NCBI GenBank assembly: GCA_041177245.1
Contig: JBEDBL010000001.1
Coordinates: 1-41,373, forward strand
DNA length: 41,373 nucleotides
Direction of reading: 5' to 3'
Source of the DNA: Verrucomicrobiota bacterium
GTDB taxonomy: Bacteria > Verrucomicrobiota > Verrucomicrobiia > Chthoniobacterales > JACTMZ01
In this document: one piece after another, positions 12,155-33,336 of the stretch
Layout: the number at the start of each line of letters is the position of its first letter
Numbering within the stretch: position 1 is the stretch's first letter
Made by a program: the position numbers and the translations under genes
Notes under the pieces: generated by a model
Seen by the model: only the letters and a program-made list of their open reading frames with translations
What the model was told of the DNA's origin: nothing
Database searches by the model: none

Positions 12155-12175
12155 CTGTGAAGATCTGATGGCACC

Positions 12176-16122: not shown

Positions 16123-16610
16123 GACGCGTCACCAACCGGACGCGCGGGATTGCCAGCGACGGTGGAACCGGCGGACACATCGTGGACAACAACGCTTCCG
16201 GCGCCGATGGTCGCGTCGTCAGCGACATTGATCGCACCGATAACCACGCTGTTGCTGCCGATGTCGACGCGATCGCCTATGACCGGACAATCGTCCGCGG
16301 CCTTGCGCATTCCGATAGTGGTCGCGTGACGGAGCGTGCAGTCGGCGCCGATGACTGCGTTGTCATGGATAACCAGGGCATAGCCGTGGTAAAGACGAAG
16401 ACGCGGCCCGATTTCGGCTTTGTAGTTCAACTCGATGCCCAGCTCCCAATACATGAGAAGCTGGTAGACAGCCAGATACGGCATCCCGGCCCACCGGATC
16501 CAGCGTGGCCACCGATGCAACTTCTGCGCGAAGCGGAAGGAGGCGAGCATCAATTGACTCCGGACGTTGCCCGCATTGGCGGACCAATCTTGCAGGATGC
16601 CTTGGCTCAT
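16119..16610 (-). CDS. Hexapeptide-repeat O-acetyltransferase (serine acetyltransferase/WcaB-like)
   Basis: 163 aa with left-handed beta-helix repeats: IGPRLRLYHGYALVIHDNAVIGADCTLRHATTIG...IGDRVDIGSNSVVIGAINVADDATIGAGSVVVHDV. Confidence 0.85.
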   Translation of the reverse strand: MSQGILQDWSANAGNVRSQLMLASFRFAQKLHRWPRWIRWAGMPYLAVYQLLMYWELGIELNYKAEIGPRLRLYHGYALVIHDNAVIGADCTLRHATTIGMRKAADDCPVIGDRVDIGSNSVVIGAINVADDATIGAGSVVVHDVSAGSTVAGNPARPVGDAS

Positions 16611-16628
16611 TTAACGTGCGGTTTGCCG

Positions 16629-17603: not shown

Positions 17604-18561
17604 CGAAACGCTGGTACAACCACTTTGAGGTATAACGTGGGGCCGCACGGAAAGCGGCCAAAATCTCGGCGGCATCGACCCGGTCACCTGTTCCGGCCAG
17701 TTTGAGGTGCCACGCAGCGCGAAGCGTTGGCGGAAGCTGCTGACCCTTCTCTTTCTCCAAGGTGGCGATCAGATACCAGAAATCTTTTTTGGACTCGCGG
17801 GGTAGTCCGCTCCGGAATGCGGAAACGAGGCCGACCTCTGCGGGACTCCATCCACGTCCCAGCCAGCGCTCGGCTTCGCGTGCCGACACGCGGCTGGCTT
17901 CGTCGAAAGCAAGTCCTCGTCCTCTTTTCGAAAGTGAACTCTCCGCATGGCGATAGCTGATGAGTCGGTCCGGCAAATTACCCGCCGGATAACGCGCCAC
18001 CAAACGCGCCCAAAGCTCATAATCCTGGGCTATGCGGAAACTTTCGTCATAGCCGCCCTCTTGCTGCACGACATCGCGGCGAAAGACAACGGCAGTGTGC
18101 AGGAAGGGGTTGAGAAAGGGGGTACACCAAGCAATCGCCACGGCATCTGCGGGTACATCAAGCAGGCCGATGTTCGAGCCATGTTCGTCGATGAGCACGC
18201 CCTGTGTGCCGAGCAAAATGGTTTGCGGATGGCGGGCGAGGTAGCGCCTCTGTGCGCTCAGGCGGCGCGGATCGGAGAGATCGTCCGCATCCTGCCGCGC
18301 AACCCAATTACCGCGGCATTCACCCAGACCGCGATTGAGGGATGCTGTTTGTCCGATGTTCGTTGCGTTGCGAACAAGCCTGATGCGGGCGTCACGGCTG
18401 GCCCAGCGCTGAAGAATTTCCGGCGAACCGTCGGTCGAACCGTCATCGACCGCGATCATTTCCCAGTCGGCGAAGTCCTGCGCGACAATGCTCGCCACCG
18501 CAACGTCCAGGTGCCGCTCTGCATTATAGACCGGCATCAAAATGCTGAAGGTGGGTGTCAT
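17593..18561 (-). CDS. Glycosyltransferase family 2
   Basis: FSILMPVYNAERHLDVAVASIVAQDF..MIAVDDGSTDGS is followed by RQDADD (a DxD motif). Confidence 0.9.
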   Translation of the reverse strand: MTPTFSILMPVYNAERHLDVAVASIVAQDFADWEMIAVDDGSTDGSPEILQRWASRDARIRLVRNATNIGQTASLNRGLGECRGNWVARQDADDLSDPRRLSAQRRYLARHPQTILLGTQGVLIDEHGSNIGLLDVPADAVAIAWCTPFLNPFLHTAVVFRRDVVQQEGGYDESFRIAQDYELWARLVARYPAGNLPDRLISYRHAESSLSKRGRGLAFDEASRVSAREAERWLGRGWSPAEVGLVSAFRSGLPRESKKDFWYLIATLEKEKGQQLPPTLRAAWHLKLAGTGDRVDAAEILAAFRAAPRYTSKWLYQRFVNF

Positions 18562-18586
18562 TTAAAGTGAGGCAGAGAATCGCAGG

Positions 18587-20368
18587 TCAACACTGATGGT
18601 CGCACCAGTTTTTGATGACGAGAAACCTCATGAAAATTTTGGTCTTGTCCGGAGGTGCGGCAAAAGCCAACGCAGCGCGGAAGTGGTCCTTGGCCGAAGG
18701 AAACACGGCTCCGAAAGCGGACCGGCCGAGTTGCCGCCCTACTTTAGCAGCAACGGCGATTGAAGAATAGCCAAGGCGCGCATCCGGACCGGCAGCCAGC
18801 AACCTCTCGAGCGCATCGCGGCGAAAAATCTCCCAGACCGGACTTTGCCTGTCCGCCAACTGAGCCAACAGATAAGACCGGAAGGATGACTTCACGTGCA
18901 TGAGTTTCTCCCAATCTTCGAGTCCGCTCTTGGACGCGAGCGGCACGGCGGCGAGCGAGGGAAATATCTGCTTCACTGCCCTCTTCATGAGCTCCTTGTG
19001 TTCTCTCAACTCGTCGGGCACGCACGACATAAACTCAAGAATCTCGTCGCTGAGCAGAGGGTTGCGGTGGTCCAGAAACGCCCTTTTGTACACCGCCGCA
19101 GAGTTGAGGTAATTCTGCAGGCGCTCCGTGAAATAAAGCCTGTCCTTCACCTGATTCGGCTCCGCGTCGCCCAAATTGCGCGTTATTTCTTCCCACACCG
19201 GACGCGAGGCTTCCGACATTTCCCGATAAGCTTCCGGCCGAAGGATAGCTTGCAGTCCTTCGGCCAGATGGAACGGCCGCAATCCCACAAGGAAAGGTGC
19301 AGCCGTTAGGCTGCTGACCGCACGCTTCCACCCGAATGCTTCATCACCGCGCAGAACACGACGGAAGCCGTCACCGCGCAACTGCCTCATGATGGCGGTT
19401 TCTTCAGGATGAAAAGCGGCAACGTCGGATTGCCATTCGGTATAGCGGCAACTTTCCTCAAAGGAAGGACCGTAATCCCTTCCACCCCTACGGAAAAATC
19501 GGTGGCTGGTTCCCGATGCTTGCGACAAATGCAACGCGACCGCTGCATCGGAACCGGCCTCCCCCTCGTCCAGTCCCCAAGTGACGGTCCGCAACTCAGA
19601 AGGGGATCGCACGGCTGCAGATGCACCAAGGATGGCCCGCGAGTCGTAGCCGCCGCTGAGAAAAACCGCCGTATCCTCCGCTTTCGATCCTGCCAGATCA
19701 CGCGGCACCGAAGCGACAATGCGGTCCGCAAGCTCAGAGGCCAAAAGCACGGGTGACGTGCGGGAGGCGCGAGATCCGGGCGCGAAGCGCCAATATTCCA
19801 CTGTTTGAACATTGCCGTCAGCAACACGAAGCGCATGGCCTCCCTTGAGTCTTCTGATGCCGCGATAAAGCGTCTGATCAGAGTAAAGATGACCGGCAAC
19901 GATGAGCGAGGCCATCGCGGCGCAATCCTTTTCCTTCGAAACTCCTTGCAGGCCGCTCAGGGCCTGAACTTCGGGTGCGAAGCAAAGCACGTTGCCGAAT
20001 GTGGTGTAGTAAACCGGCTCGGACGCGCGCTTGTCCGCCACGACCCAGAGGGTTCCTTCCGCATCAACGCAGGCGAGACTGAAAAAACCACCAAGCAACA
20101 CCGGATCGAAACGCGACGAGGCCATTTCGCAGCGGACTTGGCCGTAGGAGACTCCAGTCGAACCGGCAGAAGGGGAAATTCTTCGGCCAACTTCGGGCAG
20201 ACCACTGACGGCAAGCATGGAACCGGCTCCGCAATCGGCAGGCGGGAGATCCTCGTAGAAATCCTCCCGCAAGGACATTTCAAGCATACCGGCCAGCAAT
20301 CTTTTGGCCTCGGTGGCCGGATTCCCGCGCGCTTGGCGAAAAATTGAGACTCCAAAAATACCGGGCAC
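18587..20368 (-). CDS. Asparagine synthetase B-like amidotransferase lacking the N-terminal catalytic Cys
   Basis: 593 aa. The PP-loop VFLSGGYDSRAIL is present. The N-terminus reads (GTG)M-P-G-I-F-G-V where class II amidotransferases have M-C-G-I. Codon 2 is CCC (reverse complement of 20363-20365). Confidence 0.85.
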   Translation of the reverse strand: MPGIFGVSIFRQARGNPATEAKRLLAGMLEMSLREDFYEDLPPADCGAGSMLAVSGLPEVGRRISPSAGSTGVSYGQVRCEMASSRFDPVLLGGFFSLACVDAEGTLWVVADKRASEPVYYTTFGNVLCFAPEVQALSGLQGVSKEKDCAAMASLIVAGHLYSDQTLYRGIRRLKGGHALRVADGNVQTVEYWRFAPGSRASRTSPVLLASELADRIVASVPRDLAGSKAEDTAVFLSGGYDSRAILGASAAVRSPSELRTVTWGLDEGEAGSDAAVALHLSQASGTSHRFFRRGGRDYGPSFEESCRYTEWQSDVAAFHPEETAIMRQLRGDGFRRVLRGDEAFGWKRAVSSLTAAPFLVGLRPFHLAEGLQAILRPEAYREMSEASRPVWEEITRNLGDAEPNQVKDRLYFTERLQNYLNSAAVYKRAFLDHRNPLLSDEILEFMSCVPDELREHKELMKRAVKQIFPSLAAVPLASKSGLEDWEKLMHVKSSFRSYLLAQLADRQSPVWEIFRRDALERLLAAGPDARLGYSSIAVAAKVGRQLGRSAFGAVFPSAKDHFRAALAFAAPPDKTKIFMRFLVIKNWCDHQC

Positions 20369-20483
20369 GGTCTTAGTTGCGTTTGCGTGGAAGCGTGTCG
20401 AGCACGTCGCGGGTGGGTTGCGGAATGTTCAGAGTTCCGATAAGCGTCATCCCGTGGCGGTCCGAGCAAAAGATGTCAAAAAT

Positions 20484-22292
20484 ATGCTGGCGGGGCTCGG
20501 GAACTTTCTCGCCCGCTGGGGTTGGGCGGTGCTCGCGGTTTTTGCGTTCGTTTACTATTCGCAGTATTTCCGCTCGGGATTGAATTTGGGCGGTGAAGGC
20601 GGAACCAACGCGGTGCTCGCGCTGCGCTTGATGGAAGGTCAACGGCCGATCATCGACACTTTCCTCGGTTACAACCTGCTCTGGTTCTACCCGATCGTCG
20701 CACTCTTCAAGTGCACCGGTCCGGACTATACGGCGCTGCGGATATTCTTTTTCCTCATTTGCGCGGTCAATGCACTGCTTGGCTTCGCGGTGGTCCACGC
20801 TGCGACGCGCCGTTCGTGGCTGGCTTTCGCCACGGGCATTCTGCTCGTGCTGGTCCCCGGTATGATCTTCCGCAACTACATGGGACTGATCGGTGTGCTC
20901 TCTATGTCGGTGCTGCTCAAGGCTTACGTGCTTCCTGCACCTTCCGAGCGCGTCAGGTTCCGCTGGATGCTGGCAGCGGGAGCGGCCATGTCTCTCTGCT
21001 TTCTCTTGCGCATCGAACCATCGCTGCTGCTGACCATCGTGTGGCTGGGACTGGCCTCGCTTTACCCGCTGGGTTCACGCGGTAGTTTCTTTCAGAGGTT
21101 GCGTGCCTCGCTGTCAGGGACGTTCGCCGCTATACTGGTATTCGCGGCCATGCACGGGATATTTGCCTGGCATGCGAATGCGCGGGGATTCGGGAAAGAA
21201 TTCGCCGGCCAATACACGGGGATGGTTGGTTATTTCGGATACGAACTTTCGCAGCAACTTAAAGGTCTACGAAGCGGCGGCCAGTCCGGCGACGATGTTT
21301 CCGTGCCGCACACGACACCCGACAGCGGATGCAACGAGCGGCACGGGTCGATACGCAGGTTCGGGCGCACTTGCAGTCAGACGGAACCGAAGCAATCGGA
21401 GTGGGTCCAAGATCGCCTTGGACGACCGCCGGTCGGTGAAATCTGGAAGGCGAAACGCGAGCGCGACCGCTATTTTGCGATCTGTCTTTATTACCCGGTT
21501 TTCTGGTCCACAGTTTTTTCGGTTATTGCGATCGTCATGTTGGTCTCGGCCATATCTCGCGGCGACAGCGCGGATAAAGAACGTGCGCTGATTGTTTTGA
21601 CCACGACAGGCTGCGCTCTCTCGCTCTTCCCGCAGTATTTTTTTTTCCGGCCCGACGCGCCTCATTTCAGCGAGTTCATGGTACCATTTCTGCCGGCGGT
21701 GGCTTGTTCCTCCAGTGCAGTTTGGGACGCGGCCCGCGCGTCCTCGCGAAACATATGGAGATATCTTGCGTGGGTCCTGACTGCAGTATCGACGTTGCTT
21801 GTCCCTCTCTATCTCAAAGCCATCATGCCGCGTGAGTCCGCCGGAACTTGGTTTCACCAGGGAAAAACCGTGGAATTTACGGCGGCCAACGGCGTTCGGG
21901 TCAAAGTCACCGAAAAGGAGGCTCACGCTTTGGAAGGTTTGCGCGATGCGGTATGGGCTCACTCGGGACCGGATGATTATGTTGTTTGTTATCCCTACGC
22001 GCCGACTGTCAACTTCATGACCGCGCGGCGCAGTTACGAGCACAATCTCTACATCGACGACGCCACGGCCGGCGCACATTTCGAACGAGGGGCTATCGAG
22101 CGAGCGCAGCGGCTGAGGCCTGCCGTATTCGTCATCGACAACCGCCCTATCAATGGCAGCGAACCATCGCGATTCGCAAACTGGGCGCATTCTTTCATGG
22201 AATACCTGCGTGGAAACTTTCGGTTGGTCGGAACGTTCCAATACGGGAGCCGGGAACTCTACGTTTATGCCCGGCCGGACAAAATTGACTGA
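20484..22292 (+). CDS. GT-C-type polytopic membrane glycosyltransferase (ArnT/PMT-like, COG1807-like) with a C-terminal soluble domain
   Basis: The start was set at MLAGLGNFLARWGW (ATG at 20484). More than 10 hydrophobic segments. The first loop, GGEGGTNAVLALRLMEGQRPIIDTFLGYNLLWFY, resembles the acidic-loop/RLxxG..PxxD pattern of ArnT-like enzymes. The track ORF start at 20304 would overlap the divergent gene. Confidence 0.6.
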   Translation: MLAGLGNFLARWGWAVLAVFAFVYYSQYFRSGLNLGGEGGTNAVLALRLMEGQRPIIDTFLGYNLLWFYPIVALFKCTGPDYTALRIFFFLICAVNALLGFAVVHAATRRSWLAFATGILLVLVPGMIFRNYMGLIGVLSMSVLLKAYVLPAPSERVRFRWMLAAGAAMSLCFLLRIEPSLLLTIVWLGLASLYPLGSRGSFFQRLRASLSGTFAAILVFAAMHGIFAWHANARGFGKEFAGQYTGMVGYFGYELSQQLKGLRSGGQSGDDVSVPHTTPDSGCNERHGSIRRFGRTCSQTEPKQSEWVQDRLGRPPVGEIWKAKRERDRYFAICLYYPVFWSTVFSVIAIVMLVSAISRGDSADKERALIVLTTTGCALSLFPQYFFFRPDAPHFSEFMVPFLPAVACSSSAVWDAARASSRNIWRYLAWVLTAVSTLLVPLYLKAIMPRESAGTWFHQGKTVEFTAANGVRVKVTEKEAHALEGLRDAVWAHSGPDDYVVCYPYAPTVNFMTARRSYEHNLYIDDATAGAHFERGAIERAQRLRPAVFVIDNRPINGSEPSRFANWAHSFMEYLRGNFRLVGTFQYGSRELYVYARPDKID

Positions 22293-22301
22293 ACGATGTT
22301 G

Positions 22302-23246
22302 TTAGAAGTCCTGCTTGCGGGGAGACACAGAAATTTTTTTCCACGTGTCCGCTTCGGTGAACTCGCGGCCGGCAAAAATCCATACAATCATTTTCGTGCC
22401 CGACAAATATTCGGGCTTCGCTTTAACGCGACGAGCCAGTTGCATCCGCGAACTGGTCGCTCCTGAACCGCGGACACCCAGAACCTCGGGCATGAAACCA
22501 AGTGCGGCCGCCAACTGCTCCGGCAAGCCGGCGCCGGTCCCGTGCAAATCTCCTCCTTGGTGGAACACAAGAACATGGCTGTCACCCAGAAGCAGCAACT
22601 GGGGATCTTGAACAGCGGTGGGAAGGGAAGGAAAACGGAGTTGAACTTTTTCCGGTGATCCGCCCAAGTCACCGGAAATTTCGACGTCCTTGAGCGCCGC
22701 TTCGGGGGCGCTGTTCACCGCGATGCCCGCGGTTGTTGCCATCCTCAGAATAGGCGGCAACGCGGCATCGATTCCGCGGCCCGACCAGTGCGTGTCACGC
22801 AGGCAGAACACTTCTTCGCGGGCAGCGGAGTATTCCGGCAACAGATCAACCACCGGAACACCATGCGCGCCAATTTCCGCCATGATTTTTTCCCAGCCTG
22901 CCGTCATGGCAGCTTGTTCCTCCGGGCCAACACCGAGGGAGGAGCTTTGTACGAGGCTCTTCGGCGGAACGGGAAGGACAGCCAACGAGATTCCGGCATC
23001 CTTGAGTTGTGAAGCGAAGTTTGAGATTGCCGCAACGGCCGGCGAGACGAGCGAAGCTATGTCCGGCGAAGCCAGCTTGTCCACAAACCGCAAATCCGCG
23101 GGAAGGAAACGCCGCCCATCGGCACCCTCAACGAAAAATTCTTGTCTGGACTCGGCCGCAGCGACTTTGTCCGCGAGCGGACCTGCGTGACCGCCTGCAG
23201 TGCAAACGGCGAGACTGAGCAGAATCAGTTTTGCGGTGCGAGCCAT
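22302..23246 (-). CDS. AlgJ/AlgX-type (ALGX domain, SGNH-like) polysaccharide O-acetyltransferase, secreted
   Basis: Signal peptide MARTAKLILLSLAVCTAGGHA. The D-x-H-W motif (RDTHWS) and LLLLGDSHV are present, consistent with the Asp/His/Ser triad of AlgJ/AlgX. Confidence 0.75.
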   Translation of the reverse strand: MARTAKLILLSLAVCTAGGHAGPLADKVAAAESRQEFFVEGADGRRFLPADLRFVDKLASPDIASLVSPAVAAISNFASQLKDAGISLAVLPVPPKSLVQSSSLGVGPEEQAAMTAGWEKIMAEIGAHGVPVVDLLPEYSAAREEVFCLRDTHWSGRGIDAALPPILRMATTAGIAVNSAPEAALKDVEISGDLGGSPEKVQLRFPSLPTAVQDPQLLLLGDSHVLVFHQGGDLHGTGAGLPEQLAAALGFMPEVLGVRGSGATSSRMQLARRVKAKPEYLSGTKMIVWIFAGREFTEADTWKKISVSPRKQDF

Positions 23247-24916
23247 TCGGCGAAGTTCGGTTCCTCCATCATGACGTCCGGATGATCCAGTTCGCCTCGA
23301 TTGAGAGAGTCAAGTTTATCGGCTTTTTCTGCGTAGTTGGAAAGCCGCAACATGATGCGGTCGCCCGCGGCCAAACCGGGCGGGATCATGATGCGCCGGT
23401 CGCGCATCGTGAAAATGTAGGCCAAGGCATCACTACCAATAGCGCGTCCCGTGGAGACATCGCGGATTCCGGTCAAGTGAACGGCCGTAAGATAATCGGC
23501 GTAAGGCGTTGAAACGGTGGAAGGCAGCGGTCCGGCCGCTTTTATATCGGCCTCCACGTCGACAGATTTTCCGGCTGGAAGAACGAGAAAGCCCCGTTGT
23601 TCGGTCTGTTCTCCTGCGGCCAAGTCCACCTCGGACCAATCGCCACGCACAAACTCACGAGCCGCCATAACCCAAATGACCACTCGTTTCCCGTCAAGCC
23701 AACCCGGATTCCGCACATCCTCGGCAGCGAGCATTTCGCGCGCCGACTTTGCACCGGCGTCGTTGCGCGCGAGTTTGTCCACGCGACATCCGAGCGCGTG
23801 CGATAAATGCTCGGCAAAACCCGAGGAGGTTCCCCATCCCAGATCTTCCGAAGAGTAGATGTTCGTGTAGCTGTCGCCGAGAACAAGCACCGGCGAGGAT
23901 CGGTTTGGACGCAACTCTTTGCCATCCACTCCGAAGACCGTCTCTATTTCGACGGTTTGCAGACAAAGTAAGCGGGAAGTGGAGGGAAGATCGTGCATCA
24001 AGGCCGTATCTCCGACGGCGGAAACAGTCCTTTTTCCCAACGTGAGGTCTTCTTTCGGAAGTGCGAGGCCTGTCGCTCGGACCGCTGACGCTACCGCGCG
24101 AGCAACGAGGCCCATCGCTCCCGGGGCCCAATGGCTGTCCGTGCGGAGGAACTGTTCTTCCCCGGTCATGTTCTTGCGCGACCAAAGAATTCCGGAGGGG
24201 TCGACGACCACCGGTGCCGATGCGGAGTCATGGTCGGTGGTGTTGATCCCGGACAATTTTGCGGCCAACTCCGAGACGACGGATGCGGCTGGCGGTTGTG
24301 CAAAAGAAGCATTTGCCGGGGCGAGTTGCTCGGGGTGGATGGACGCTTTGCCCGGAACAGGAACAACAACCAGCCGGATTCCCCGACTACCGAGTTGTGC
24401 CGCGAAGGAGGTAATTCCCTCGGCAGCCACAGCTCCAAAGGCGGATGACATGACCAAAGCATCGACATCTGGCCGGTAAAAAAGCCATCCGTCGCGCCCG
24501 ACGTAAGCTTCTTCGCTTCCGGCTCCGCCGAGGCGGAGCAGACCATCGAGCACGCCCGGACGGACTGTTTTGCCGATAGCTGATGAGTCTTCCAGTGCGG
24601 TTTCGAAATCCTCGATTGCACCGATGGAGGCATTGTTGGCCTGAACGATTGCCGACCAGCGGAATCCCCCGGCGTGGAAACAATGCCAGATGCGCGAGAT
24701 GCCGTTCCGCGCTTTCTGCAAAGGGTCTCTCCAAGATCCGAGCAAGCCATCGGCAAGAGGGACGAGAAGCAGACCCAGGCAGAACAGCACCGACAACCAG
24801 ACCGCCAAAGGGCGCGCCACTTCGGTGCGCTTCCAACCCTCCGCGTACTCTTCGCGTGAGGATCCGCCGGCCGACCCGGGTTTATGGGCGACGCTGCTGC
24901 CTTGACCGGACATCAT
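23225..24916 (-). CDS. AlgJ/AlgX-type O-acetyltransferase, membrane-anchored, with an extra C-terminal domain of about 130 aa
   Basis: N-terminal TM anchor LAVWLSVLFCLGLLLVPLA. Motifs RTDSHWA and VLVLGDSYT are present. I did not recognise the C-terminal region (FLVLPAGKSVDVEADIK...MEEPNFAEWLAPQN). The gene overlaps the next gene by 22 nt. Confidence 0.75.
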   Translation of the reverse strand: MMSGQGSSVAHKPGSAGGSSREEYAEGWKRTEVARPLAVWLSVLFCLGLLLVPLADGLLGSWRDPLQKARNGISRIWHCFHAGGFRWSAIVQANNASIGAIEDFETALEDSSAIGKTVRPGVLDGLLRLGGAGSEEAYVGRDGWLFYRPDVDALVMSSAFGAVAAEGITSFAAQLGSRGIRLVVVPVPGKASIHPEQLAPANASFAQPPAASVVSELAAKLSGINTTDHDSASAPVVVDPSGILWSRKNMTGEEQFLRTDSHWAPGAMGLVARAVASAVRATGLALPKEDLTLGKRTVSAVGDTALMHDLPSTSRLLCLQTVEIETVFGVDGKELRPNRSSPVLVLGDSYTNIYSSEDLGWGTSSGFAEHLSHALGCRVDKLARNDAGAKSAREMLAAEDVRNPGWLDGKRVVIWVMAAREFVRGDWSEVDLAAGEQTEQRGFLVLPAGKSVDVEADIKAAGPLPSTVSTPYADYLTAVHLTGIRDVSTGRAIGSDALAYIFTMRDRRIMIPPGLAAGDRIMLRLSNYAEKADKLDSLNRGELDHPDVMMEEPNFAEWLAPQN

Positions 24917-24940
24917 GAAACCTTAGCCTCGCCAGCTTGC

Positions 24941-27013
24941 ATGACTGACTGGATTACCGAGAAAAAAAACAACGTTCGCGATCGTGACGCTGTATTTTGG
25001 TGGAGACTTTTTTTCGCAGTCGCCGCGGCCGGTTTCAGCCTGCTCATGATTCTCCAACCTCCGCCTTGGAAAGTTATTGCCGAGGCCGCGGGACAGGAAT
25101 TGACCATCGCGCAACTCGTTTACGCGGGAACATGGCTGGGCGCCCTTGGGTCGGTCGCCATTATGGGACTTCTCTTCGCTATCTGCCCCTGGTGGGCGCT
25201 CGCTCCGCGGCCGCAAAAGGGCAAATGGTGCGCGACCGCCGCACCTCGGTGGTTCTGGCCGACGGTTCTGGCCGCGGTCATTGCCGCCGGATCGATCGCG
25301 GCACCGTCATTGGACGACAGTCTTTGGGACGACGAACACGAGTCACTCGTCTGGTATGTGCTAGGTCGCTATGTGCGGCAGGAACCGGATGGGCACGTCA
25401 AGTTGAAGGAGCACAACTGGCGCCGGACCATATTCGGATACTCCACGCCGAACAACCACATCTTCCACAATATACTGGCGCGTTCGTCCAACGCGCTGTG
25501 GCGTGCCGTGGCCAGACCGAAAGGTTTGCAGTTCAACGAGGTGGCGCTGCGCATACCCGCTTTCCTCGCAGGCTTGGCCTGCATCGCAGCGCTCGGAGTG
25601 CTTCTGCGTGACTTCGGGTTCCCCGCGGCCGGCTCCATCGCCGCTTGGTTTCTCGCATTGCAACCGTGGTTCACGGAGCACATGGCGTTGGCGCGCGGAT
25701 ACACCATCACCATGCTTTGCACCGTTTTGATCTTTGTGTTTTGGCGAAGGGCTCTGGTCTCCGGAGCATGGCTGTGGTGGGTGCTTCTTACCGTTTCCGA
25801 ATTTCTCCTGCTCTGGACCTATCCGGCAGCCGTTTTTCTCGTCGCCGTCTTGAATGTCGCCCTATTTGTATTGCTAAAAACAGGTGCCACCCCGGTGGCA
25901 GGGCCCGAACGAACCGCACTGTCCCGATGGTTCTGTTGCACGGCGCTAGCCGCCGCCGGTTTGTTGCCACTCATTGCCCCTCTCGTTCCGCAACTCCGCA
26001 AATACATCGATTCTTTGACCAGCGGATTGATGGGTTGGCCGTGGCTTGTGAACTTTGCCTCGTTTGTCACCGCGGGCGCGGCTTGGGACAACGGTTCGGG
26101 TTCCGACCGCGATTACCTCGATCTGCAGCTGGTCTCGCACGCCTACGGACACTTGGCCGTGCATATGCTGCTTGCGGGGACCGCGCTGCTTTTTGCGGTC
26201 GGATTTATACGCTTTGCCCGGGGCGGAAAATTGGCACTCGCCGCAACGATCAGCGCTTTGCTCGGTCCCCTTATGCACTGGGTTTATGCGGAGAGCAGCG
26301 GGGTGGTTTTATGGGAATGGTATCTTATCTACGTGCTGCCCTTTGTCTGCATGTTCTGGGGTGTAGGCACTTGGACCGCTTCGATCTCGTTCGTCAAAAT
26401 CACTCGAGCCAGGTGGACCGGCGTGCCGGTCGCAGTTGTTTTGGTGTGCCTCTATGCCATTGTGACCGCGCCGGTGCGTGCGTGGCACTTCAACCACACA
26501 CGCGTACCCTACCGCGAGACCGCGGAAGCCTCGCGCGCGTGTGCGGACGGAAAAGATGCTATTGTCTTCAGCATAACGGGTGCGCCGCTCGCCTACGATC
26601 CAGACCTTTTTTTGATCGAGAAACCGGTGGATCTGGCCATTCTCATGTGTCAGGCAGACGCGCAAAAGCGCCGCCTCATCGCCAACATGGGGCAGATGCA
26701 AACCCTGCAGCTGTGCTACCCCGGAATCTTTGCGCTGGTCGATAACAGGTCTCTGTTCCCGCATGTGGAAAAGTTCAAAGGATTTTTCAGCGGCGGTGAC
26801 AGGTTCCTTTGTTTTTACCGGCCGGGTAGTGCGGCCCTCTTCGACTTTGCGGGAATTCTCACGCCCGAGGAACTGGCTTACGCTAGAAGCAAGGCGGACA
26901 TCGCGCCCGAGAAGTATTTTTCCGGGCGTGTGAAGCGCCATGAGGCGCAGGGGACGGGAGGATACGGCCCCGCTCCGGGTGTCGGCAAAGAGCCCCACCA
27001 TTTCAGAAAATAA
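24941..27013 (+). CDS. GT-C-type polytopic membrane glycosyltransferase (PMT/ArnT-like)
   Basis: The start was set at MTDWITEKK (ATG at 24941); an alternative ATG lies at 24884. More than 10 TM segments. The first periplasmic loop carries LDDSLWDDEHESLVWY, resembling the DE motif of GT39/GT83 enzymes. A soluble tail of about 180 aa follows. Confidence 0.65.
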   Translation: MTDWITEKKNNVRDRDAVFWWRLFFAVAAAGFSLLMILQPPPWKVIAEAAGQELTIAQLVYAGTWLGALGSVAIMGLLFAICPWWALAPRPQKGKWCATAAPRWFWPTVLAAVIAAGSIAAPSLDDSLWDDEHESLVWYVLGRYVRQEPDGHVKLKEHNWRRTIFGYSTPNNHIFHNILARSSNALWRAVARPKGLQFNEVALRIPAFLAGLACIAALGVLLRDFGFPAAGSIAAWFLALQPWFTEHMALARGYTITMLCTVLIFVFWRRALVSGAWLWWVLLTVSEFLLLWTYPAAVFLVAVLNVALFVLLKTGATPVAGPERTALSRWFCCTALAAAGLLPLIAPLVPQLRKYIDSLTSGLMGWPWLVNFASFVTAGAAWDNGSGSDRDYLDLQLVSHAYGHLAVHMLLAGTALLFAVGFIRFARGGKLALAATISALLGPLMHWVYAESSGVVLWEWYLIYVLPFVCMFWGVGTWTASISFVKITRARWTGVPVAVVLVCLYAIVTAPVRAWHFNHTRVPYRETAEASRACADGKDAIVFSITGAPLAYDPDLFLIEKPVDLAILMCQADAQKRRLIANMGQMQTLQLCYPGIFALVDNRSLFPHVEKFKGFFSGGDRFLCFYRPGSAALFDFAGILTPEELAYARSKADIAPEKYFSGRVKRHEAQGTGGYGPAPGVGKEPHHFRK

Positions 27014-28436
27014 AGTAGATGAAGGGATTGAATTTCTGGACGCTCAACATGAGCGCGGACATCCAGAAAACGGCGAGAGACCAAACTGCTTTCGGTGCCG
27101 TGAGCCGTTGAGTCCACGACATCGTGGTCGGTCCGAGCCAGACAAGTAGCGAGGCAAGAAGGAAAACGACGACGAAATACGGCTTCCAAACAATACCGGC
27201 GATCAAGGGCGCCAAATTTCCAGTCCCGGCGAAACCGAACAGTCGGGAATAATACTGCATCGCCCCCGGTAAATCGGGTGCACGGAAAAGAACCCACAGC
27301 AACGCGACAATGGTAAAACTGAACGCCACCTGCAAAAATTCCGGGCACCCGGCCCACAAACTGCGTCGCGGCATGGCGCGCTCGGCTCCGAGCAAGAGCC
27401 CGTGAGCGCATCCCCACAGGATAAAATTCCACGAAGCGCCGTGCCACAAACCTCCGAGGAACATGACAATCAAGAGGTTCGCATAGGTGCGCCATAGTCC
27501 GCGACGGTTGCCTCCCAGCGGGATGTAAAGATAGTCGCGCAGCCAGGTCGACAGAGTGATATGCCAGCGTTGCCAGAAATTGGTGATGCTGTGTGCGCGG
27601 TAGGGCGAATCGAAATTGATGGGAAATCGGAACCCCAGCATCAGCCCCAGTCCGATGGCCATGTCCGAGTATCCGCTGAAGTCGAAATAAATCTGGAAGG
27701 CATACGCGAACAAACCGAACCAAGACTCGAGAAAACCGGCGTCGGTCGCACCGAACAAAATATCGGCAACTTTGCCGCAGGGATTCGCAATGAGCACTTT
27801 CTTGCCGAGGCCGAGCGAGAAGCAAGCCACTCCGCGGGCGAACGCATCCCAATTGCGATCGGGACGCCGCAGTTGCCTTGCCACCGTCTGGAATCTCACG
27901 ATGGGTCCCGCCACGAGTTGCGGAAACATCGACACATAAGCGGCAAAGCCGGCGAAATTACGCAACGCCCTGGCTTCGCCGCGATAGACGTCGATGGTAT
28001 AACTCATCGACTGGAACGTGTAGAAACTGATGCCCAATGGCAGCGTAACCTCGAGGAAAAAGTCCGGCTGAGCCCAGCCGAGTTTCTCGCCGAGGGCGCG
28101 GTAGTTCTCCGCGGCGAAGTTGAAATATTTGAAGAAACCGAGCAGTGAAAGATTGCTCGCGATTGATGCCAAAAGCGCGGCTTTTTCCGTGAAAGTGCGG
28201 TGTTCGATTAGATTGCGGATGCGCCGGTTGCCTTCCCGCAGGAGAACCAGACCGCCAATGTAGTCGATCAAAGTCGACAACATCATTAGCAACATAAAAG
28301 CCGGATTGGCCCACCCGTAGAAGAGGTAGCTGAAGGCCGCAAGAACCCCGAGCCAGACGCGGCGCGGAGCCAGCAGGCTCGCGGCCAGCGCGACCGGAAG
28401 AAAATAAAAAAGAAAAAGGTGGGAGCTGAAGACCAT
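27003..28436 (-). CDS. MBOAT-family membrane O-acyltransferase (AlgI/DltB/PatA-like)
   Basis: 477 aa beginning MVFSSHLFLFYFLPVAL. Motifs FWQRWHITLSTWLRDYLYIPLGGNR and GGLWHGASWNF (the conserved His) are present. Confidence 0.9.
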   Translation of the reverse strand: MVFSSHLFLFYFLPVALAASLLAPRRVWLGVLAAFSYLFYGWANPAFMLLMMLSTLIDYIGGLVLLREGNRRIRNLIEHRTFTEKAALLASIASNLSLLGFFKYFNFAAENYRALGEKLGWAQPDFFLEVTLPLGISFYTFQSMSYTIDVYRGEARALRNFAGFAAYVSMFPQLVAGPIVRFQTVARQLRRPDRNWDAFARGVACFSLGLGKKVLIANPCGKVADILFGATDAGFLESWFGLFAYAFQIYFDFSGYSDMAIGLGLMLGFRFPINFDSPYRAHSITNFWQRWHITLSTWLRDYLYIPLGGNRRGLWRTYANLLIVMFLGGLWHGASWNFILWGCAHGLLLGAERAMPRRSLWAGCPEFLQVAFSFTIVALLWVLFRAPDLPGAMQYYSRLFGFAGTGNLAPLIAGIVWKPYFVVVFLLASLLVWLGPTTMSWTQRLTAPKAVWSLAVFWMSALMLSVQKFNPFIYFIF

Positions 28437-28442
28437 GGGTGT

Positions 28443-29573
28443 TCAGTCGGTAGCGAGAACGGAACGAAAAATTTCCGCGTGGTGCCCGATCCAGCGTTGC
28501 GCGCCAAAGGAGCTTTCGGCGCGGCGCCGTGCGGCGGCGGAAAAATTTCCCAGTTGCGGAAGAATTTCCCCCACCGCCAGGGCCAAGGCCGATCCCGGGG
28601 GAGTCGAGGCGGTTTTCCACGAATGCGGAATATCGATGAGCTTGGCGCACGAATCGTCGACCATTTCGGGAATTCCGCCCGACCGCGCGGCCACCACCGG
28701 CAAACCGCAGGCCAGCGCCTCGGCCACCACTGTCGGACAAGGATCCATGTATTTGGGATGAAGCAGGAGATGATGGTCGCGGTAAATGGACGGTGCTTCG
28801 TCCTGGCGGAAAGGAGGCAGGAAGCGAACGCGATCATGCAGGCCGAATGCTTCGACTGCTTTGCGAACATCGCCATCGGCTCCGCGCCAGATCAAAGGAC
28901 CGGCCACGGTCAGCGTGCATTCCGTCCCGGCTCCGCGCAGTTCGCGCAAGCACTCCAATGCGGCGAAGACGCGATCGCGGTAATTTTGCGTTCCCATGGC
29001 CAGCAAGCGCAGGGGCGATAGAGGCAGTGGTATTTCCGGCGGGCGAAACTTTTGCAGATCAACCGGATTGAGCAGAACCGTCGATGAAATTTCGCAAGGG
29101 CCGAGGAACTTGGCGGCCGACTCGCGGCAAAATTCACTCTGGTATACGACAAAATCCGCAAGGGTGCGCAGGCGGCGCATCGGCGCATTGTGCCTCTCCG
29201 CCTCCAATCCGGCCCAAGCCGGATAACCAACCCCATTCTGGTTCCACATGAACTTGATTCCACGCGAACGGCAGATGCGAACGAGTTCTTCGGCGAAAGG
29301 TGGCTGCGCGCTGCTGACGAGGTAGAGGATGTTGCAGTTGAAATCGTCGCAGCGGAATCCATCGCGCAGCGAAAGCAGCTTCACCGCGCCGCCATGAATG
29401 AACTTGTCCGGGTCGAGGACTCCGCCGAACCCCAAGACCGGTTCCGCAGCATCGAAGCGGCGGATCTCCGCGTAGTTTTGCCGCGCAGCGCGGCGATGCG
29501 GCCACTCGACGATGCGGCACAAGGCATCGCGCAGGCGGCACACCGCGCCGAAAACAATGTTGTGGATAGACAT
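28443..29573 (-). CDS. Glycosyltransferase, GT4-like
   Basis: LLLHPKYMDPCPTVVAEALACGLPVVAARSGGIPEMV is present. An ATG at 29573 (MSIHNIVF) is preferred over the TTG at 29633. Confidence 0.8.
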   Translation of the reverse strand: MSIHNIVFGAVCRLRDALCRIVEWPHRRAARQNYAEIRRFDAAEPVLGFGGVLDPDKFIHGGAVKLLSLRDGFRCDDFNCNILYLVSSAQPPFAEELVRICRSRGIKFMWNQNGVGYPAWAGLEAERHNAPMRRLRTLADFVVYQSEFCRESAAKFLGPCEISSTVLLNPVDLQKFRPPEIPLPLSPLRLLAMGTQNYRDRVFAALECLRELRGAGTECTLTVAGPLIWRGADGDVRKAVEAFGLHDRVRFLPPFRQDEAPSIYRDHHLLLHPKYMDPCPTVVAEALACGLPVVAARSGGIPEMVDDSCAKLIDIPHSWKTASTPPGSALALAVGEILPQLGNFSAAARRRAESSFGAQRWIGHHAEIFRSVLATD

Positions 29574-29597
29574 CGTTACGAGAGCTAATCCATGTAG

Positions 29598-30281
29598 ATG
29601 GAAAACCGGAAGCTTGGCGGCGCATGGCCGCAAATCTGCGACTACTCAGGAGACTTGGGTATTCCGCCCAGTCGCTGGCGAGAAAAGTGGTCGACCCATG
29701 AGATGAGCGCCAAACGTCTGCACAACGCCATCCGCATTTTCCGACCGCGCCGGATCCTCGAAACCGGAACATTCGAGGGACTCGGCACATGGGTTATGGC
29801 CAAAGCACTCGCATCCAACGGCGGTGGCGAGATCATCACTATCGACTACGACGGCGACCCGGAGGTCGCCATGCCCGAGACGGATTGGCGGGAACTCGAC
29901 CGCATCCGGGCGGAGAATCTCGATCGTGCCCGGAAAGATTTTCCGCGGGTTTCGATCGAATTCATCAAAGGCGATTCGCGCAAGGTGCTTCCGGATTTGT
30001 TTCCGGCCAAATGGGATCGCTGGGATTTGTTTTTCCAAGACTCCATGCATTTCGCTTCGGGCATCCGCGCCGAATGGGACATCGTCTGTCCTTTCGCTGC
30101 TCCGAATGCCTTGGTTGTTTTCGACGATGTTTGTCTCGATTGGTGGAAACTCGGGTCATATTTGCGGGGCCAGGACGACTTTTGCATCCGCTTCGTCATT
30201 CGCCAGATGCTCGAACGGTGGTGGCGTTGCCGTTCCACCGCTGAAGGCCGCGCGCAGTTTTGGGCGCAACGCCGCGGCTAG
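29598..30281 (+). CDS. Class I SAM-dependent methyltransferase (Methyltransf_24/CmcI-like)
   Basis: Motif I is RILETGTFEGLGTWVMA. Also present: IITIDYD, IEFIKGDSRKVLPDL and FFQDSMH. The start is uncertain: ATG at 29598 or ATG at 29703. Confidence 0.7.
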   Translation: MENRKLGGAWPQICDYSGDLGIPPSRWREKWSTHEMSAKRLHNAIRIFRPRRILETGTFEGLGTWVMAKALASNGGGEIITIDYDGDPEVAMPETDWRELDRIRAENLDRARKDFPRVSIEFIKGDSRKVLPDLFPAKWDRWDLFFQDSMHFASGIRAEWDIVCPFAAPNALVVFDDVCLDWWKLGSYLRGQDDFCIRFVIRQMLERWWRCRSTAEGRAQFWAQRRG

Positions 30282-31138
30282 TCCGATATTTGCCGGACAA
30301 ACTCGCGCGGGGATATCGCGGCTTTCCATCCGGTGGCGTCGCGCAATTTTGCCGACGACACTTCTGCCGTGGAAACATCCCAAGGATAATGCGGAAGATA
30401 TTCGCGTTCGATCTTCCGACCGCATGAGTCTTCCACAAGCGAGACCAAGTCGTTGACCGAAAGCGAGCATCCCGAGGAGACATTGAAAACGCCACACAGA
30501 TCCGGGGAGAGGACGCTCTCCACCGCTCGGTGGAGGTCCGGCGCGGCGAGATAGTCTTTGATCGCGGAACCATCACCCCAGATTTGGACTTTGTCTCCGG
30601 ATCGGACGGACCGCAGAAGAACAGGAATGATTCCTTGCGGACGTGTCAGCGGACAACCGGCTCCGAAAACATTGGTGATGCGGAGAAGACAAGCGTTGTC
30701 GCATGACGAAAAAAGTTCCTCTGCCTGAAGTTTGGCCGCGGCGTAGCGTCCGAGCGGAGCACAGGGTGTTTCCTCGGTGGCCGGTGTGTCACTTGTGTCC
30801 CCGTAAACCGCAGCAGTGGAAAAGAAAACGATGCGCGGCTGAGTCGGGCAATGCGCGGCCGCTGCGACCAAGTCGCGAACAAAAGGCAGATCCTCTTTTT
30901 CCTCCGTGCCCGGTTTTTCCTCCGAGACCAGGGGAACGGTGCTCCAACCCAGATGCAGGATTGCATCGAATGATGCCAGCACGTCCGGTTTCCGAAGCTC
31001 TTCCAAGTCCCGGTATAGCCCGGCTGCTTCCCGCGAGAACAGGACAACATCATGCCCGGCGCCGACCAGATGGGCGGTCAGACCGGGCGCAAGACGGCCT
31101 CGACCCCCGGTCAGGGCAATTCGTTGACGCGTTTGCAT
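30278..31138 (-). CDS. NAD-dependent epimerase/dehydratase family protein (extended SDR)
   Basis: Variant Rossmann motif IALTGGRGRLAPGL. Also present: FFSTAAVYG and the catalytic YAAAK (YxxxK). Confidence 0.8.
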   Translation of the reverse strand: MQTRQRIALTGGRGRLAPGLTAHLVGAGHDVVLFSREAAGLYRDLEELRKPDVLASFDAILHLGWSTVPLVSEEKPGTEEKEDLPFVRDLVAAAAHCPTQPRIVFFSTAAVYGDTSDTPATEETPCAPLGRYAAAKLQAEELFSSCDNACLLRITNVFGAGCPLTRPQGIIPVLLRSVRSGDKVQIWGDGSAIKDYLAAPDLHRAVESVLSPDLCGVFNVSSGCSLSVNDLVSLVEDSCGRKIEREYLPHYPWDVSTAEVSSAKLRDATGWKAAISPREFVRQISD

Positions 31139-31156
31139 TTTTCTTAGCGCGCCCCT

Positions 31157-32362
31157 CTAGGAACGCCGAAGCTCGGTGATTTTGCTGGCAAGCGAGAGAA
31201 GATCTTCGCGCGACCGGCAGTTCCGGCTGTCGAGGCATTGTCCCGAAAGCGCGGGCGCTGAAATGCGAATTCCCGAATTTTTCATATCGACAGTGCGGTT
31301 CGTGGTGACTTGTCCGCTGACCGAGTGAAACAACGATGCAAATGTGTCCACCATGCCGGGCGCACCCTTCGGGAGATCCGCATAAGCACTCTGCAGCGCG
31401 CGGGCCACGGCGGAAGGGTTGTGCGTGACGGCGGTGTTGGCGGCAGCTAACGCACAAACTTTGCGTAACTCATTCGATCGCGCAGCTCTTTTGAGTAATC
31501 CGACCGCGGCATCTACGGAATTGAAGAGGCATTCATCCGGCAAGACATCGCGCGCCGTTCCAACGGGTGAACTGATCACCAAACATCCGGACGCGAGCGC
31601 TTCGAGCACGGAGTATGGTCCACCTTCCCAGCGGGAGCTGATTACACAAGCGTCGAGAGTCTGGTAAAGTTCGTTCAGCCGCGAACGTGAGAGAATATTG
31701 CGCGGATAGTCATCGGCCGCACCCCACTCCTCGCCGGCAAAAACCACGGGAATGCCCTCGGCCCGGAGCGAATTCAGCAGCCAATGCCGTCGCGGGCCGG
31801 CCAGCAGGACGGTAAGGCCGGGAATTTTTCCGCGAAGTGAACGCGCGATCTCGAAGAAAATATCCGGACCCTTCTGCAACTTGGGTTTGCCCAAATCAGC
31901 GCCTTCCGAATCGCGATGAAAGTTTCCGATGACGAAGGCAACATCGTCCAAGCCGAGCGATTGACGAATTTCCGTTCTACTGGCTAATGGGCGAAAAATG
32001 TCTGGATCGACGCAATACGGAACACGAACGACAGGAAGTCCGAGCCAGCCGAATTGCTCCTCCGCTTCTTGCGAACGGGCAATCCAGAGATCGACGTGCT
32101 TGGAAACTTGGTCGAAACCTTCCGTTCCAACATAGAAGGCGGGCGGATTGTCCGCTTGGCAGACGACGAATTTACCGCGCAAGGCATCGGCGGGGATTGC
32201 GCTCACTGCGGCGGGCCAGGCTGCGTGGACAATGCGCGCGAGGGGTAAGGACGTCCACCGGCATCTGTCGTCCAGCGATCGCCGGACCCATGCAATGTCT
32301 TCGTCCAGCGCCCACGCTACTTTCTGTCCGCCGGCTAGGTGAACATGCCAACTCCCGCTCAT
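31157..32362 (-). CDS. Glycosyltransferase, GT4-like
   Basis: The start was set at MSGSWHVHLAGG (ATG at 32362), overlapping the upstream stop (ATGA at 32359-32362). An EX7E region is present in SSRWEGGPYSVLEALASGCLVISS. The 139-codon upstream extension in the track lies inside the preceding gene. Confidence 0.8.
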   Translation of the reverse strand: MSGSWHVHLAGGQKVAWALDEDIAWVRRSLDDRCRWTSLPLARIVHAAWPAAVSAIPADALRGKFVVCQADNPPAFYVGTEGFDQVSKHVDLWIARSQEAEEQFGWLGLPVVRVPYCVDPDIFRPLASRTEIRQSLGLDDVAFVIGNFHRDSEGADLGKPKLQKGPDIFFEIARSLRGKIPGLTVLLAGPRRHWLLNSLRAEGIPVVFAGEEWGAADDYPRNILSRSRLNELYQTLDACVISSRWEGGPYSVLEALASGCLVISSPVGTARDVLPDECLFNSVDAAVGLLKRAARSNELRKVCALAAANTAVTHNPSAVARALQSAYADLPKGAPGMVDTFASLFHSVSGQVTTNRTVDMKNSGIRISAPALSGQCLDSRNCRSREDLLSLASKITELRRS

Positions 32363-33336
32363 GGACGGGTGGCGAGCAAAGTCTGGATCAGTTGGCGGTA
32401 AGCCAGACACATCTTGTCTCCGGCGGGGCCGTCGGCGAGGAGCCGGGCGCGCAATGAGGAATATTGTTCTCGCAGCTTGTCCATTGCCGGCACCGGATCG
32501 CTTTCGAGCAATACCCCGAATTTTTCCCCGAGTTCCAACGTGCCGCCCGTTTCCGCATAGTAAAGCAGAGGCAATCCGCATTGCAGAGCCTCGACCGGAT
32601 GCATCGCGCCCGGCTCGTAGCGGGAGGCGGACACCGCCGCGTGGCACTGGCGCAGCAAGTCGGCCAGCTTCATTCCCGCGCACGGACCGAAAGTCCGGGC
32701 GGATTGCCAGCGAATGTCCGAAGGCCATCGACCGATGATCCACAGTTCGACACCCGGAAGCCGGCCGACAGCGATACATCGGTCGATTTCGGCGTAGACA
32801 TCAAATCCTTTCGAGGGATTGTCCGACCAATGGTGAGTCACGATGCGGAAGGTCTCGCCCGGTTGCCAAGGCTTGTTGCCGAAAGGATGGAACACCGCGG
32901 GATCGGCGCCATTGATGATGACGGAATGCGGACGCGCCGTATCGAACCAGCGTCTTGCGTGGTGGTCGCGGAGCCAGGAGGAGACAAAGACCGTGTGATC
33001 GGCGGCCGCGTTGGCCTCCGCCAAATATGCATCCATCCCACCGGTTCCTTTGCGCGCATCGTTGTCATTGATGCGCTGGACACAACGAAGCCGCGGATTC
33101 CGCTTTTTGGCGGCGATCACTTCTTCATAGGTGAATTCCAAGGGACCGGTGAGCCCGGCATGCGTTCCCATGACGAGATCGACGCTCTCGTCCAAGCGGT
33201 AAACGACCCGGTAGTCGCAGCACCGCAGATACGCTGATAGTTGCGCGGCCCACTGGTTGCCTCCCCCGTAGGGTCCGCGACGAGGACGCAAATTGAACGC
33301 CACGGTTGCCGTTTTTTTGTTTTGAAAAAAGCTCAT
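32359..33336 (-). CDS. Glycosyltransferase, GT-B fold (GT4-like)
   Basis: 325 aa. An EX7E region is present in SRYEPGAMHPVEALQCGLPLL. The ATG overlaps the upstream stop (ATGA at 33333-33336). Confidence 0.7.
   Translation of the reverse strand: MSFFQNKKTATVAFNLRPRRGPYGGGNQWAAQLSAYLRCCDYRVVYRLDESVDLVMGTHAGLTGPLEFTYEEVIAAKKRNPRLRCVQRINDNDARKGTGGMDAYLAEANAAADHTVFVSSWLRDHHARRWFDTARPHSVIINGADPAVFHPFGNKPWQPGETFRIVTHHWSDNPSKGFDVYAEIDRCIAVGRLPGVELWIIGRWPSDIRWQSARTFGPCAGMKLADLLRQCHAAVSASRYEPGAMHPVEALQCGLPLLYYAETGGTLELGEKFGVLLESDPVPAMDKLREQYSSLRARLLADGPAGDKMCLAYRQLIQTLLATRP

Follow-up and report, generated by a model that had tools for sequence, protein, structure and literature searches.

We analyzed a putative extracytoplasmic O-acylation module on contig JBEDBL010000001.1 from a Verrucomicrobiota bacterium. 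The contig is 41.4 kb long (41,373 nucleotides, ~59% GC), occurs in freshwater metagenomes and has its nearest named relatives in the Chthoniobacterales; we refer to its whole length as the window. The module consists of a gene for an MBOAT O-acyltransferase and genes for two proteins with an ALGX domain, one long and one short, all on the minus strand. A gene for a polytopic membrane protein lies on the opposite strand between the MBOAT gene and the long ALGX gene (Table 1). An earlier note on this DNA had read these genes as a periplasmic O-acetylation relay for a polymer other than alginate or cellulose. The four open reading frames (ORFs) were found at the positions and in the order that the note gave, with all the motifs that it quoted, and each test that was run supported such a relay at the level of sequence. 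The novelty is smaller than the note implied, since it is an accepted concept that MBOAT-SGNH pairs also serve polymers beyond these two (PMC12148441).

The motif GGLWHGASWNF, which the earlier note had quoted for the MBOAT, spans residues 328-338 of the protein and includes the catalytic histidine. The protein ends in an FxYxxF hexapeptide. This hexapeptide formed the exact C-terminal end of 70 out of 73 complete cassette MBOATs and read FIYFIF in 64 of those 70. In PatA, the conserved His auto-acetylates the Tyr of the C-terminal FxYxxF acyl shuttle from acetyl-CoA, and the acetyl-Tyr peptide is then the donor to the SGNH partner (Anderson et al., JBC 2025, PMC12148441). By analogy, Tyr474 is the predicted acetyl-Tyr intermediate of the window protein. 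With a catalytic His, a fused FxYxxF and an adjacent SGNH partner, the MBOAT has, as judged from its sequence, the class features of the PatA/AlgI/WssH acyl relay.

DltB was the best match of the MBOAT among both solved structures and NCBIfam models, as would be expected if the enzyme transferred a non-acetyl acyl group, either D-alanyl as in the Dlt system or a longer chain. The two systems have a homologous MBOAT core and the same acyl-Tyr shuttle logic. However, the DltB structure 6bug aligned (2.5e-26) to residues 134-354 only, and residues 355-477 (~120 aa), with two hydrophobic segments, lie past this DltB-like core. A fused FxYxxF on two extra helices sets acetyl-CoA-using MBOATs apart from DltB, which has neither and depends on the microprotein DltX (PMC12148441). 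In the window protein, FxYxxF forms part of the MBOAT chain itself, as it does in the PatA class that uses acetyl-CoA, and no separate microprotein carries it. The MBOAT also scored 157.5 bits against the DltB equivalog model TIGR04091, for which the cutoff is 375. We scanned the 30 window ORFs of at least 200 aa for protein families and detected none of the Dlt partners (DltA, DltC, DltD, DltX), of which DltA, DltC and DltX are needed by the Dlt system. Transfer of a non-acetyl group is thus opposed by both the protein and its surroundings, and we regard it as very improbable.

The earlier note had described one ALGX protein as membrane-anchored and the other as secreted, and this was borne out. 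The long ALGX protein has a single hydrophobic helix at residues 37-55, and the short one has a signal-peptide-like N-terminus and no transmembrane (TM) helix. An AlphaFold (AF2) model of the long protein, with a predicted local distance difference test (pLDDT) score of 86.6, comprises a disordered N-terminus, a TM helix (35-58), a three-helix stalk (63-130), an SGNH-like domain (~133-430) and a beta domain (~449-557). Structure prediction followed by a Foldseek search had been proposed as a check, and it returned the AlgJ fold. The best match in the PDB was AlgJ (4o8v, E 1.8e-14, TMt 0.74), followed by AlgX (7ula and 4knc, ~1e-12) and Bacillus PatB1 (5v8e, 1.6e-6), and the DHHW protein 4nzk was also significant. 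The search gave no further significant match in the PDB, and no Gram-negative PatB was found at E 0.001.

AlgJ has the catalytic triad D190/H192/S288 and the signature motifs hydrophobic-PxK and (R/K)TDTHW (PMC4148444). The corresponding residues could be aligned in the long ALGX protein, for which more than 100 full-length homologues were found (46-65% identity, 96-100% coverage). In an alignment of 53 sequences, D260, H262, W263, G347, D348 and S349 were all invariant, as were P188 and K190 of its PxK motif, VPGK. The short protein has the motifs VPPK (P94, K96), RDTHW from residue 150 and GDSH from residue 221, giving the triad D151/H153/S223. D151, H153 and G221-D222-S223 were invariant in 12 sequences of several phyla. 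The triad is therefore retained in both proteins.

We compared the short protein with the long family using hhalign (probability 100, E 3.2e-46, 281 columns). This profile comparison identifies the short protein as a paralogue, over its full length, of the SGNH-like domain, with a predicted AlgJ/AlgX-type fold. It is more likely to be a soluble periplasmic protein than a lipoprotein, because the cysteine in its N-terminal region is not conserved. Both SGNH proteins are AlgJ-like in sequence, and annotation pipelines label their homologues "alginate O-acetyltransferase AlgJ" or "AlgX-related". The long and short genes overlap by 22 bp. The module's genes adjoin or overlap one another and so leave no space for a small gene like algF, which agrees with the earlier observation that an AlgF/WssF/WssG-like small gene is missing.

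Distribution of the cassette and of the C-terminal domain

To describe how widely the three genes occur together, we surveyed one genome per GTDB species. This search uncovered more than 521 loci, and the gene orders given here refer to the best 80 of them. The order MBOAT, long ALGX, short ALGX (M>J>X) was observed in 42 loci, X<M>J in 13 and M>J in 11, several of the last at contig ends. The remaining 14 had other or partial arrangements, with just one containing a GT-C-like gene inside the cassette. An MBOAT-ALGX pair or triad was present in 68 of the 80 species-representative loci, spanning at least 10 phyla. The hosts include Verrucomicrobiota (among them Akkermansia and Opitutaceae), Planctomycetota, Desulfobulbaceae/Desulfocapsa, Poribacteria, Acidobacteriota, Armatimonadota, Lentisphaerae, Spirochaetales, Bacteroidales and Myxococcales. 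The three genes are contiguous, in the order MBOAT > long ALGX > short ALGX, in the related loci L003/L004 and L008, and in L001 a methyltransferase gene lies between the two ALGX genes. The contiguous arrangement is the ancestral, widespread order.

The earlier note had suggested looking for a conserved MBOAT-GT-C-ALGX block, and the neighborhood survey did not reveal one. Interleaving with the GT-C candidate was found to be common only to the window and its closer relatives L007 and L009. The gene was thus inserted in one small subclade, a derived and lineage-specific state that does not belong to the design of the system.

Natural fusions of the long and short proteins into single chains of ~900-960 aa were also found (P0110, at L005:3915-6656, 913 aa; P0107, P0109, P0111, P0268, P0296, P0307 and P0322). 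They occur mainly on Planctomycetota-like contigs, with the C-terminal domain located between the two units or at the end. These fusions are good evidence that the two proteins work together.

We next describe the C-terminal domain of the long protein, which the earlier note had left unplaced at about 130 aa. The domain is real and is still without a Pfam or PDB match, and its size needs correction, as the model shows a beta domain of ~100 aa. When the isolated domain was searched against the PDB with Foldseek, the best match had E 0.23 and a TM-score <0.5, with weak OB-fold-like matches only; neither AlgX nor any carbohydrate-binding module (CBM) was among them. Over this domain the search with the full model gave only weak matches resembling single-stranded DNA-binding proteins (SSB), and no Pfam model matched it at E 0.5. 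An AlgX-type CBM was thus ruled out by the lack of an AlgX or CBM fold match.

An iterated hidden Markov model (HMM) search over the fetched loci detected the domain in other MBOAT-adjacent proteins as well, including those of other phyla. It ends PD40-propeller/Laminin_G_3 lectin-like proteins of ~700 aa in 21 loci, mostly encoded directly upstream of the MBOAT gene, and it is present in GDSL-like SGNH proteins of ~430 aa in 12 loci and in PepSY+GDSL proteins of Poribacteria. A single-sequence phmmer search against 1.84 billion representatives recovered 235 cluster representatives, in which the domain mostly lies at the end of proteins of 520-600 aa. Tandem copies were found in P0305 (2045 aa, 9 copies) and P0347 (1622 aa, 4 copies). 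A final homologue search with the domain profile returned short unannotated fragments only. The domain may therefore behave as a mobile binding or docking module linked to the cassette, directed to the MBOAT complex or to the polymer, and could account for the recruitment of partners or substrate. Extra GDSL proteins were seen to adjoin distant cassettes; sequence searches of the PDB for a likeness of these to PatB or Ape were uninformative.

Proposed relay and its substrate

The analysis shows which domain families are present, that their catalytic residues are invariant, that the MBOAT ends in FxYxxF, how the long protein folds in the model, that the cassette is conserved and in what genomic context it lies. 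The acyl donor, the order of the relay, the substrate and the part played by the C-terminal domain are deduced from these. Only four MBOAT-SGNH systems have been studied (alginate, cellulose, secondary cell wall polysaccharide and peptidoglycan), all in Proteobacteria or Firmicutes. Such pairs are stated to exist "throughout bacteria" (PMC12148441). Pairs acting beyond alginate and cellulose, the AlgJ/AlgX labels in databases and the mechanism itself are therefore nothing new. In the literature that we searched, we found no description of the conserved three-gene layout, in which two AlgJ-like paralogues occur without AlgF, of its breadth across phyla, of the long-short fusions or of the C-terminal domain, and a search for MBOAT and SGNH in Verrucomicrobia found no paper. 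The same chemistry would be present, packaged as a conserved cassette of three genes, in many phyla that have received little study, among them Verrucomicrobiota such as Akkermansia.

The Pseudomonas AlgI-AlgJ-AlgF-AlgX system resembles the cassette in combining an MBOAT with one anchored and one soluble SGNH-like ALGX protein. The AlgJ motifs are kept, and AlgJ 4o8v is the best fold match. The cassette differs in that AlgF, the alginate synthase and the export genes are missing, the anchored and not the soluble protein bears the extra C-terminal domain, this domain is not the AlgX CBM, both partners are AlgJ-like and the surroundings are a heteropolysaccharide glycosyltransferase (GT) cluster. 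We also considered whether one of the partners is AlgX proper and rejected this, as the short protein has no extra domain and the C-terminal domain of the long protein has no AlgX/CBM match.

It could be argued that the module genuinely serves alginate or cellulose acetylation and that the matching synthase is encoded at another place in the genome, in keeping with the automatic labels of its homologues. We give this almost no credence. No alginate or cellulose synthase, export or PilZ family (alg8/44/K/E/F, BcsA) was detected among the scanned window ORFs, consistent with the earlier statement that Alg8/Alg44/AlgK/AlgE and BcsA genes are absent, and none is listed among the called genes at the relatives' loci. 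The cassette lies instead among GT2 and GT4 genes typical of heteropolysaccharide assembly, and the AlgX CBM is absent. All periplasmic domains of the module are acidic (pI 4.9-5.5); this is a weak argument, but it offers nothing in favor of a polyanionic substrate like alginate. The routine label "alginate O-acetyltransferase" thus calls for correction in hundreds of genes that have no evident alginate pathway near the cassette.

The Bacillus PatA1/PatB1 system, which acts on secondary cell wall polysaccharide, and the cellulose systems WssH/WssI and CcsH/CcsI likewise pair an MBOAT with an AlgX-fold SGNH protein on non-alginate glycans, and PatB1 5v8e was among our matches. However, each of them uses only one SGNH partner (accompanied by WssF and WssG in Pseudomonas), and they lie beside polymer synthesis genes, occur in other phyla and do not have the C-terminal domain. 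Gram-negative PatA/PatB shares the MBOAT catalytic His, the FxYxxF tail and a TM-anchored SGNH partner (PMC12148441), but PatB is a canonical SGNH protein, whereas the two partners here have the AlgJ/AlgX/PatB1 fold. PatA/PatB was rejected by partner type, as none of the significant fold matches was a canonical SGNH PatB. Peptidoglycan is probably not the substrate, and a function on it would still be compatible with this fold result. Placement in the PatA/PatB or DltB/DltD families and a lost triad had been named in advance as reasons to abandon the relay, and we observed neither. Since defining features of each of the alginate, cellulose, Dlt and PatAB systems were looked for and not found, the cassette is none of these.

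We consider it probable that the three genes encode an extracytoplasmic MBOAT-SGNH O-acyl relay, with acetyl as the most likely group, acting on a surface polysaccharide of the surrounding cluster. Briefly, the MBOAT would take acetyl-CoA from the cytoplasm, and His332 would catalyze acetylation of Tyr474 in the FIYFIF tail at the periplasmic face. The acetyl-Tyr tail would then give its acetyl group to an SGNH serine, with Ser349 of the long protein and Ser223 of the short protein as the candidates. The TM helix and helical stalk of the long protein would keep it beside the MBOAT, and the C-terminal domain of this protein would serve in docking or glycan binding. Finally, acetyl would be passed to hydroxyl groups of a glycan already translocated across the inner membrane. 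If AlgJ and AlgX are taken as a guide, the proximal acceptor is likely the anchored protein and the terminal transferase the soluble one; the order could also be reversed, or both SGNH proteins could act in parallel.

A different division of labor is possible, though unlikely, in which acetyl would not pass in line through both SGNH paralogues: one would be the transferase and the other an O-acetyl esterase or editor, or a mainly structural adaptor replacing AlgF. Acetylesterase activity and poor polymer binding have been described for AlgJ (PMC4148444). In Pseudomonas, AlgF is required to bridge AlgJ and AlgX (bioRxiv 10.1101/2023.07.25.550544), and an AlgF-like gene is absent here. By a simple motif pattern at other loci, 8 out of 66 short ALGX ORFs were without DxHW and 3 out of 66 without GxS. 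However, the full triad is present in both window proteins and invariant in aligned orthologues, and the single-chain fusions suggest joint action. As a two-SGNH system without AlgF, the cassette offers a natural setting in which to ask if acetyl passes between SGNH proteins.

For the substrate, we favor, with somewhat better than even confidence, an O-antigen-, capsule- or extracellular polysaccharide (EPS)-like surface polysaccharide made by the ~13-GT variable cluster around the module. In the clade of the window (at least 47% identity: L001, L003, L007, L008, L009 and L011), the cassette was always located inside a GT-rich cluster. L003, L004 and L007 are syntenic with the window, with GT4-GT4-RRM-miaA-hflX adjoining, and comparison of window positions 9829-16122 with L003:12653-18902 revealed a conserved chromosomal site with strongly differing gene content. 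The differences among the clusters include a sulfotransferase in L003, a GT9 heptosyltransferase and an Acyl_transf_3-SGNH gene in L001, and UbiA, PgpA and PMT_2 genes in L008, where the opposite side of the cassette was fetched. The site looks like a hypervariable surface-glycan locus, variable content being typical of O-antigen and capsule loci. O-acetylation alters the recognition of surface glycans by phages, predators, enzymes and immune systems.

Several observations weigh against the proposed relay or this assignment. The GT content differs among the relatives and the cassette is constant, so the target could be a conserved moiety and not the variable repeat. In 38 out of 45 long loci with distant cassettes (~33% identity), no GT gene was found within 10 kb, the neighbors being housekeeping genes; positive controls in the same scan recovered 3-10 GTs. 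Association with GT clusters is thus not a property of the family as a whole. Genes for a flippase, polymerase, synthase or exporter were not recognized in the window, whose end falls inside the cluster. The esterase activity of AlgJ-type enzymes was measured in vitro (PMC4148444), and a hydrolytic role for one of the SGNH paralogues is possible.

We considered two alternatives to this substrate. One is that the same relay serves a conserved envelope target, either N-acetylmuramic acid (MurNAc) of peptidoglycan, as a PatA/PatB analogue, or the core or lipid A of lipopolysaccharide (LPS), with its position in the cluster being incidental. The cassette occurs in at least 10 phyla, and the 38 loci have it alone among genes such as tgt, secDF, valS and hemD. 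It is far better conserved than the GTs (85% identity between the MBOATs of the window and L003, with unlike GT sets), and the heptosyltransferase of L001 is directly upstream of the MBOAT gene. We nevertheless hold this to be unlikely, though a serious rival. Every locus of the window clade with enough flank has the cassette in a GT-rich cluster, the partners are of the AlgJ/AlgX/PatB1 type with no canonical Gram-negative PatB among the significant fold matches, and known members of this fold act on alginate, on cellulose and on secondary cell wall polysaccharide (PMC12148441).

The other, which we put forward only tentatively, is that the cassette is a distinct, hitherto undescribed and phylum-spanning envelope-acylation system, found in the Planctomycetota-Verrucomicrobiota-Chlamydiota (PVC) group, Desulfobacterota, Acidobacteriota, Poribacteria, Armatimonadota and others. 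Its hallmark, the new ~100-aa beta domain, would bring periplasmic proteins of several kinds, among them SGNH enzymes and lectin proteins of PD40/ConA-like type, to the MBOAT or to one conserved envelope polymer that they share, and the primary target would not be the product of the neighboring cluster.

The GT-C candidate and neighboring genes

The positions of the module, its motifs and the neighboring genes are given in Table 1.

Table 1 Features of the O-acylation module and of the surrounding glycan cluster (window positions, unless a locus is named).
Feature	Position	Strand	Remarks
MBOAT O-acyltransferase, 477 aa, AlgI/PatA/WssH class	27003..28436	-	PF03062 at 3.3e-34
His332 codon, MBOAT catalytic histidine (universally conserved)	27441..27443	-	WHG aligned to WHG of DltB 6bug
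FxYxxF acyl-shuttle hexapeptide F472-I-Y474-F-I-F477 at C-terminus	27006..27023	-	protein end ...FNPFIYFIF
Long membrane-anchored AlgJ-like SGNH protein, 563 aa	23225..24916	-	PF16822 ALGX at 2e-25, model positions 3-265 of 268
Asp260-Ser-His262 in RTDSHW (start residue 258)	24131..24139	-	Asp and His of permuted triad; aligned to AlgJ RTDTHW
Ser349 in GDSY (start residue 347), predicted nucleophile	23870..23872	-	aligned to AlgJ GTSY
C-terminal beta domain of long ALGX, ~100 aa, residues ~449-557	23246..23572	-	pLDDT 89.6 modelled alone
Examples of the domain outside long ALGX	L075:3782-5887; L008:5347-7431; L020:2925-5444; L043:5944-7275; L064:6599-8305		
Short secreted AlgJ-like SGNH protein, 314 aa	22302..23246	-	PF16822 at 2.9e-14, above gathering score
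Polytopic membrane protein, 690 aa, probable GT-C glycosyltransferase	24941..27013	+	between long ALGX and MBOAT
LWDDE motif of GT-C candidate, residues 128-132, first loop	25322-25336	+	W129, D131, E132 invariant; L128, D130 at least 90% conserved
Glycan cluster	13952..40982	.	~13 GT2/GT4 glycosyltransferases, amidotransferase, methyltransferase, epimerase/dehydratase, second polytopic membrane protein
GT4 gene	28443-29633	-	directly upstream of MBOAT, gap 6 bp
Methyltransf_24 gene	29598-30281		within glycan cluster
NAD epimerase/dehydratase	30278-31138		within glycan cluster
Second polytopic membrane protein, 662-aa ORF	20304-22292	+	3' of short ALGX, convergent with short ALGX
Asn-synthase-like amidotransferase, 593 aa	18587-20368	-	in glycan cluster; homologue in L008 cluster
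RRM_1-domain RNA-binding protein, 294-aa ORF, domain at residues 191-260	12176-13060	-	next to miaA, kept in relatives

The earlier note had described the opposite-strand gene that splits the MBOAT gene from its partners as a GT-C gene. Its position was confirmed, and the GT-C label is probable only. The 3' end of this gene is convergent with the 3' end of the MBOAT gene, with an 11-bp overlap, and the protein has ~11-12 hydrophobic segments followed by a ~175-aa soluble C-terminal part. Searches of the protein itself against Pfam and NCBIfam gave nothing, even at E 10. The PMT_2 family (PF13231) was matched by 8 of 30 homologues, with a best E of 1.5e-7, though not by the window protein, and the family profile matched STT3A weakly (E 0.037). 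Together with the conserved LWDDE motif and the hydrophobic segments, these indirect lines make a GT-C-fold glycosyltransferase the probable assignment. No GtrB/ArnC-like membrane-anchored GT2 that could supply a GT-C enzyme was found in the window, where the GT2 proteins are all without a TM helix.

L008 was found to have two paralogues of the GT-C candidate 4.7 kb away from its cassette, beside the UbiA, PgpA, PMT_2 and Asn-synthase genes. In an unrelated member of the Verrucomicrobiae, a GT-C-like gene (L024:13654-14184; 31% identity over window residues 13-191) lies between the long and short ALGX genes. This case suggests that GT-C genes have become associated with the cassette recurrently, and from the repeated co-location a single periplasmic glycan may be the target of both. 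The product of the inserted gene may be a second periplasmic-face modifier of the glycan that the proposed relay would acetylate.

The second polytopic membrane protein had no match in Pfam or NCBIfam. Homologues are present in the same clusters of L007 and L008, the L008 copy having a weak DUF6311 match, and possible functions of the protein are those of a polymerase, of a ligase or of a further GT-C-like enzyme. The two polytopic proteins were compared as possible paralogues, and no relationship was detectable (BLASTP E 2.8). A scan of the module for sigma-70 promoters gave no site, the consensus being uninformative for this phylum. A uronic acid or an amino sugar in the glycan is a possible target for amidation by the Asn-synthase-like amidotransferase. 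To the left, the cluster is bordered by genes for the RRM protein, miaA, hflX, PPK2 and an OprB porin, and at the other end the contig terminus (41373) falls inside the cluster.

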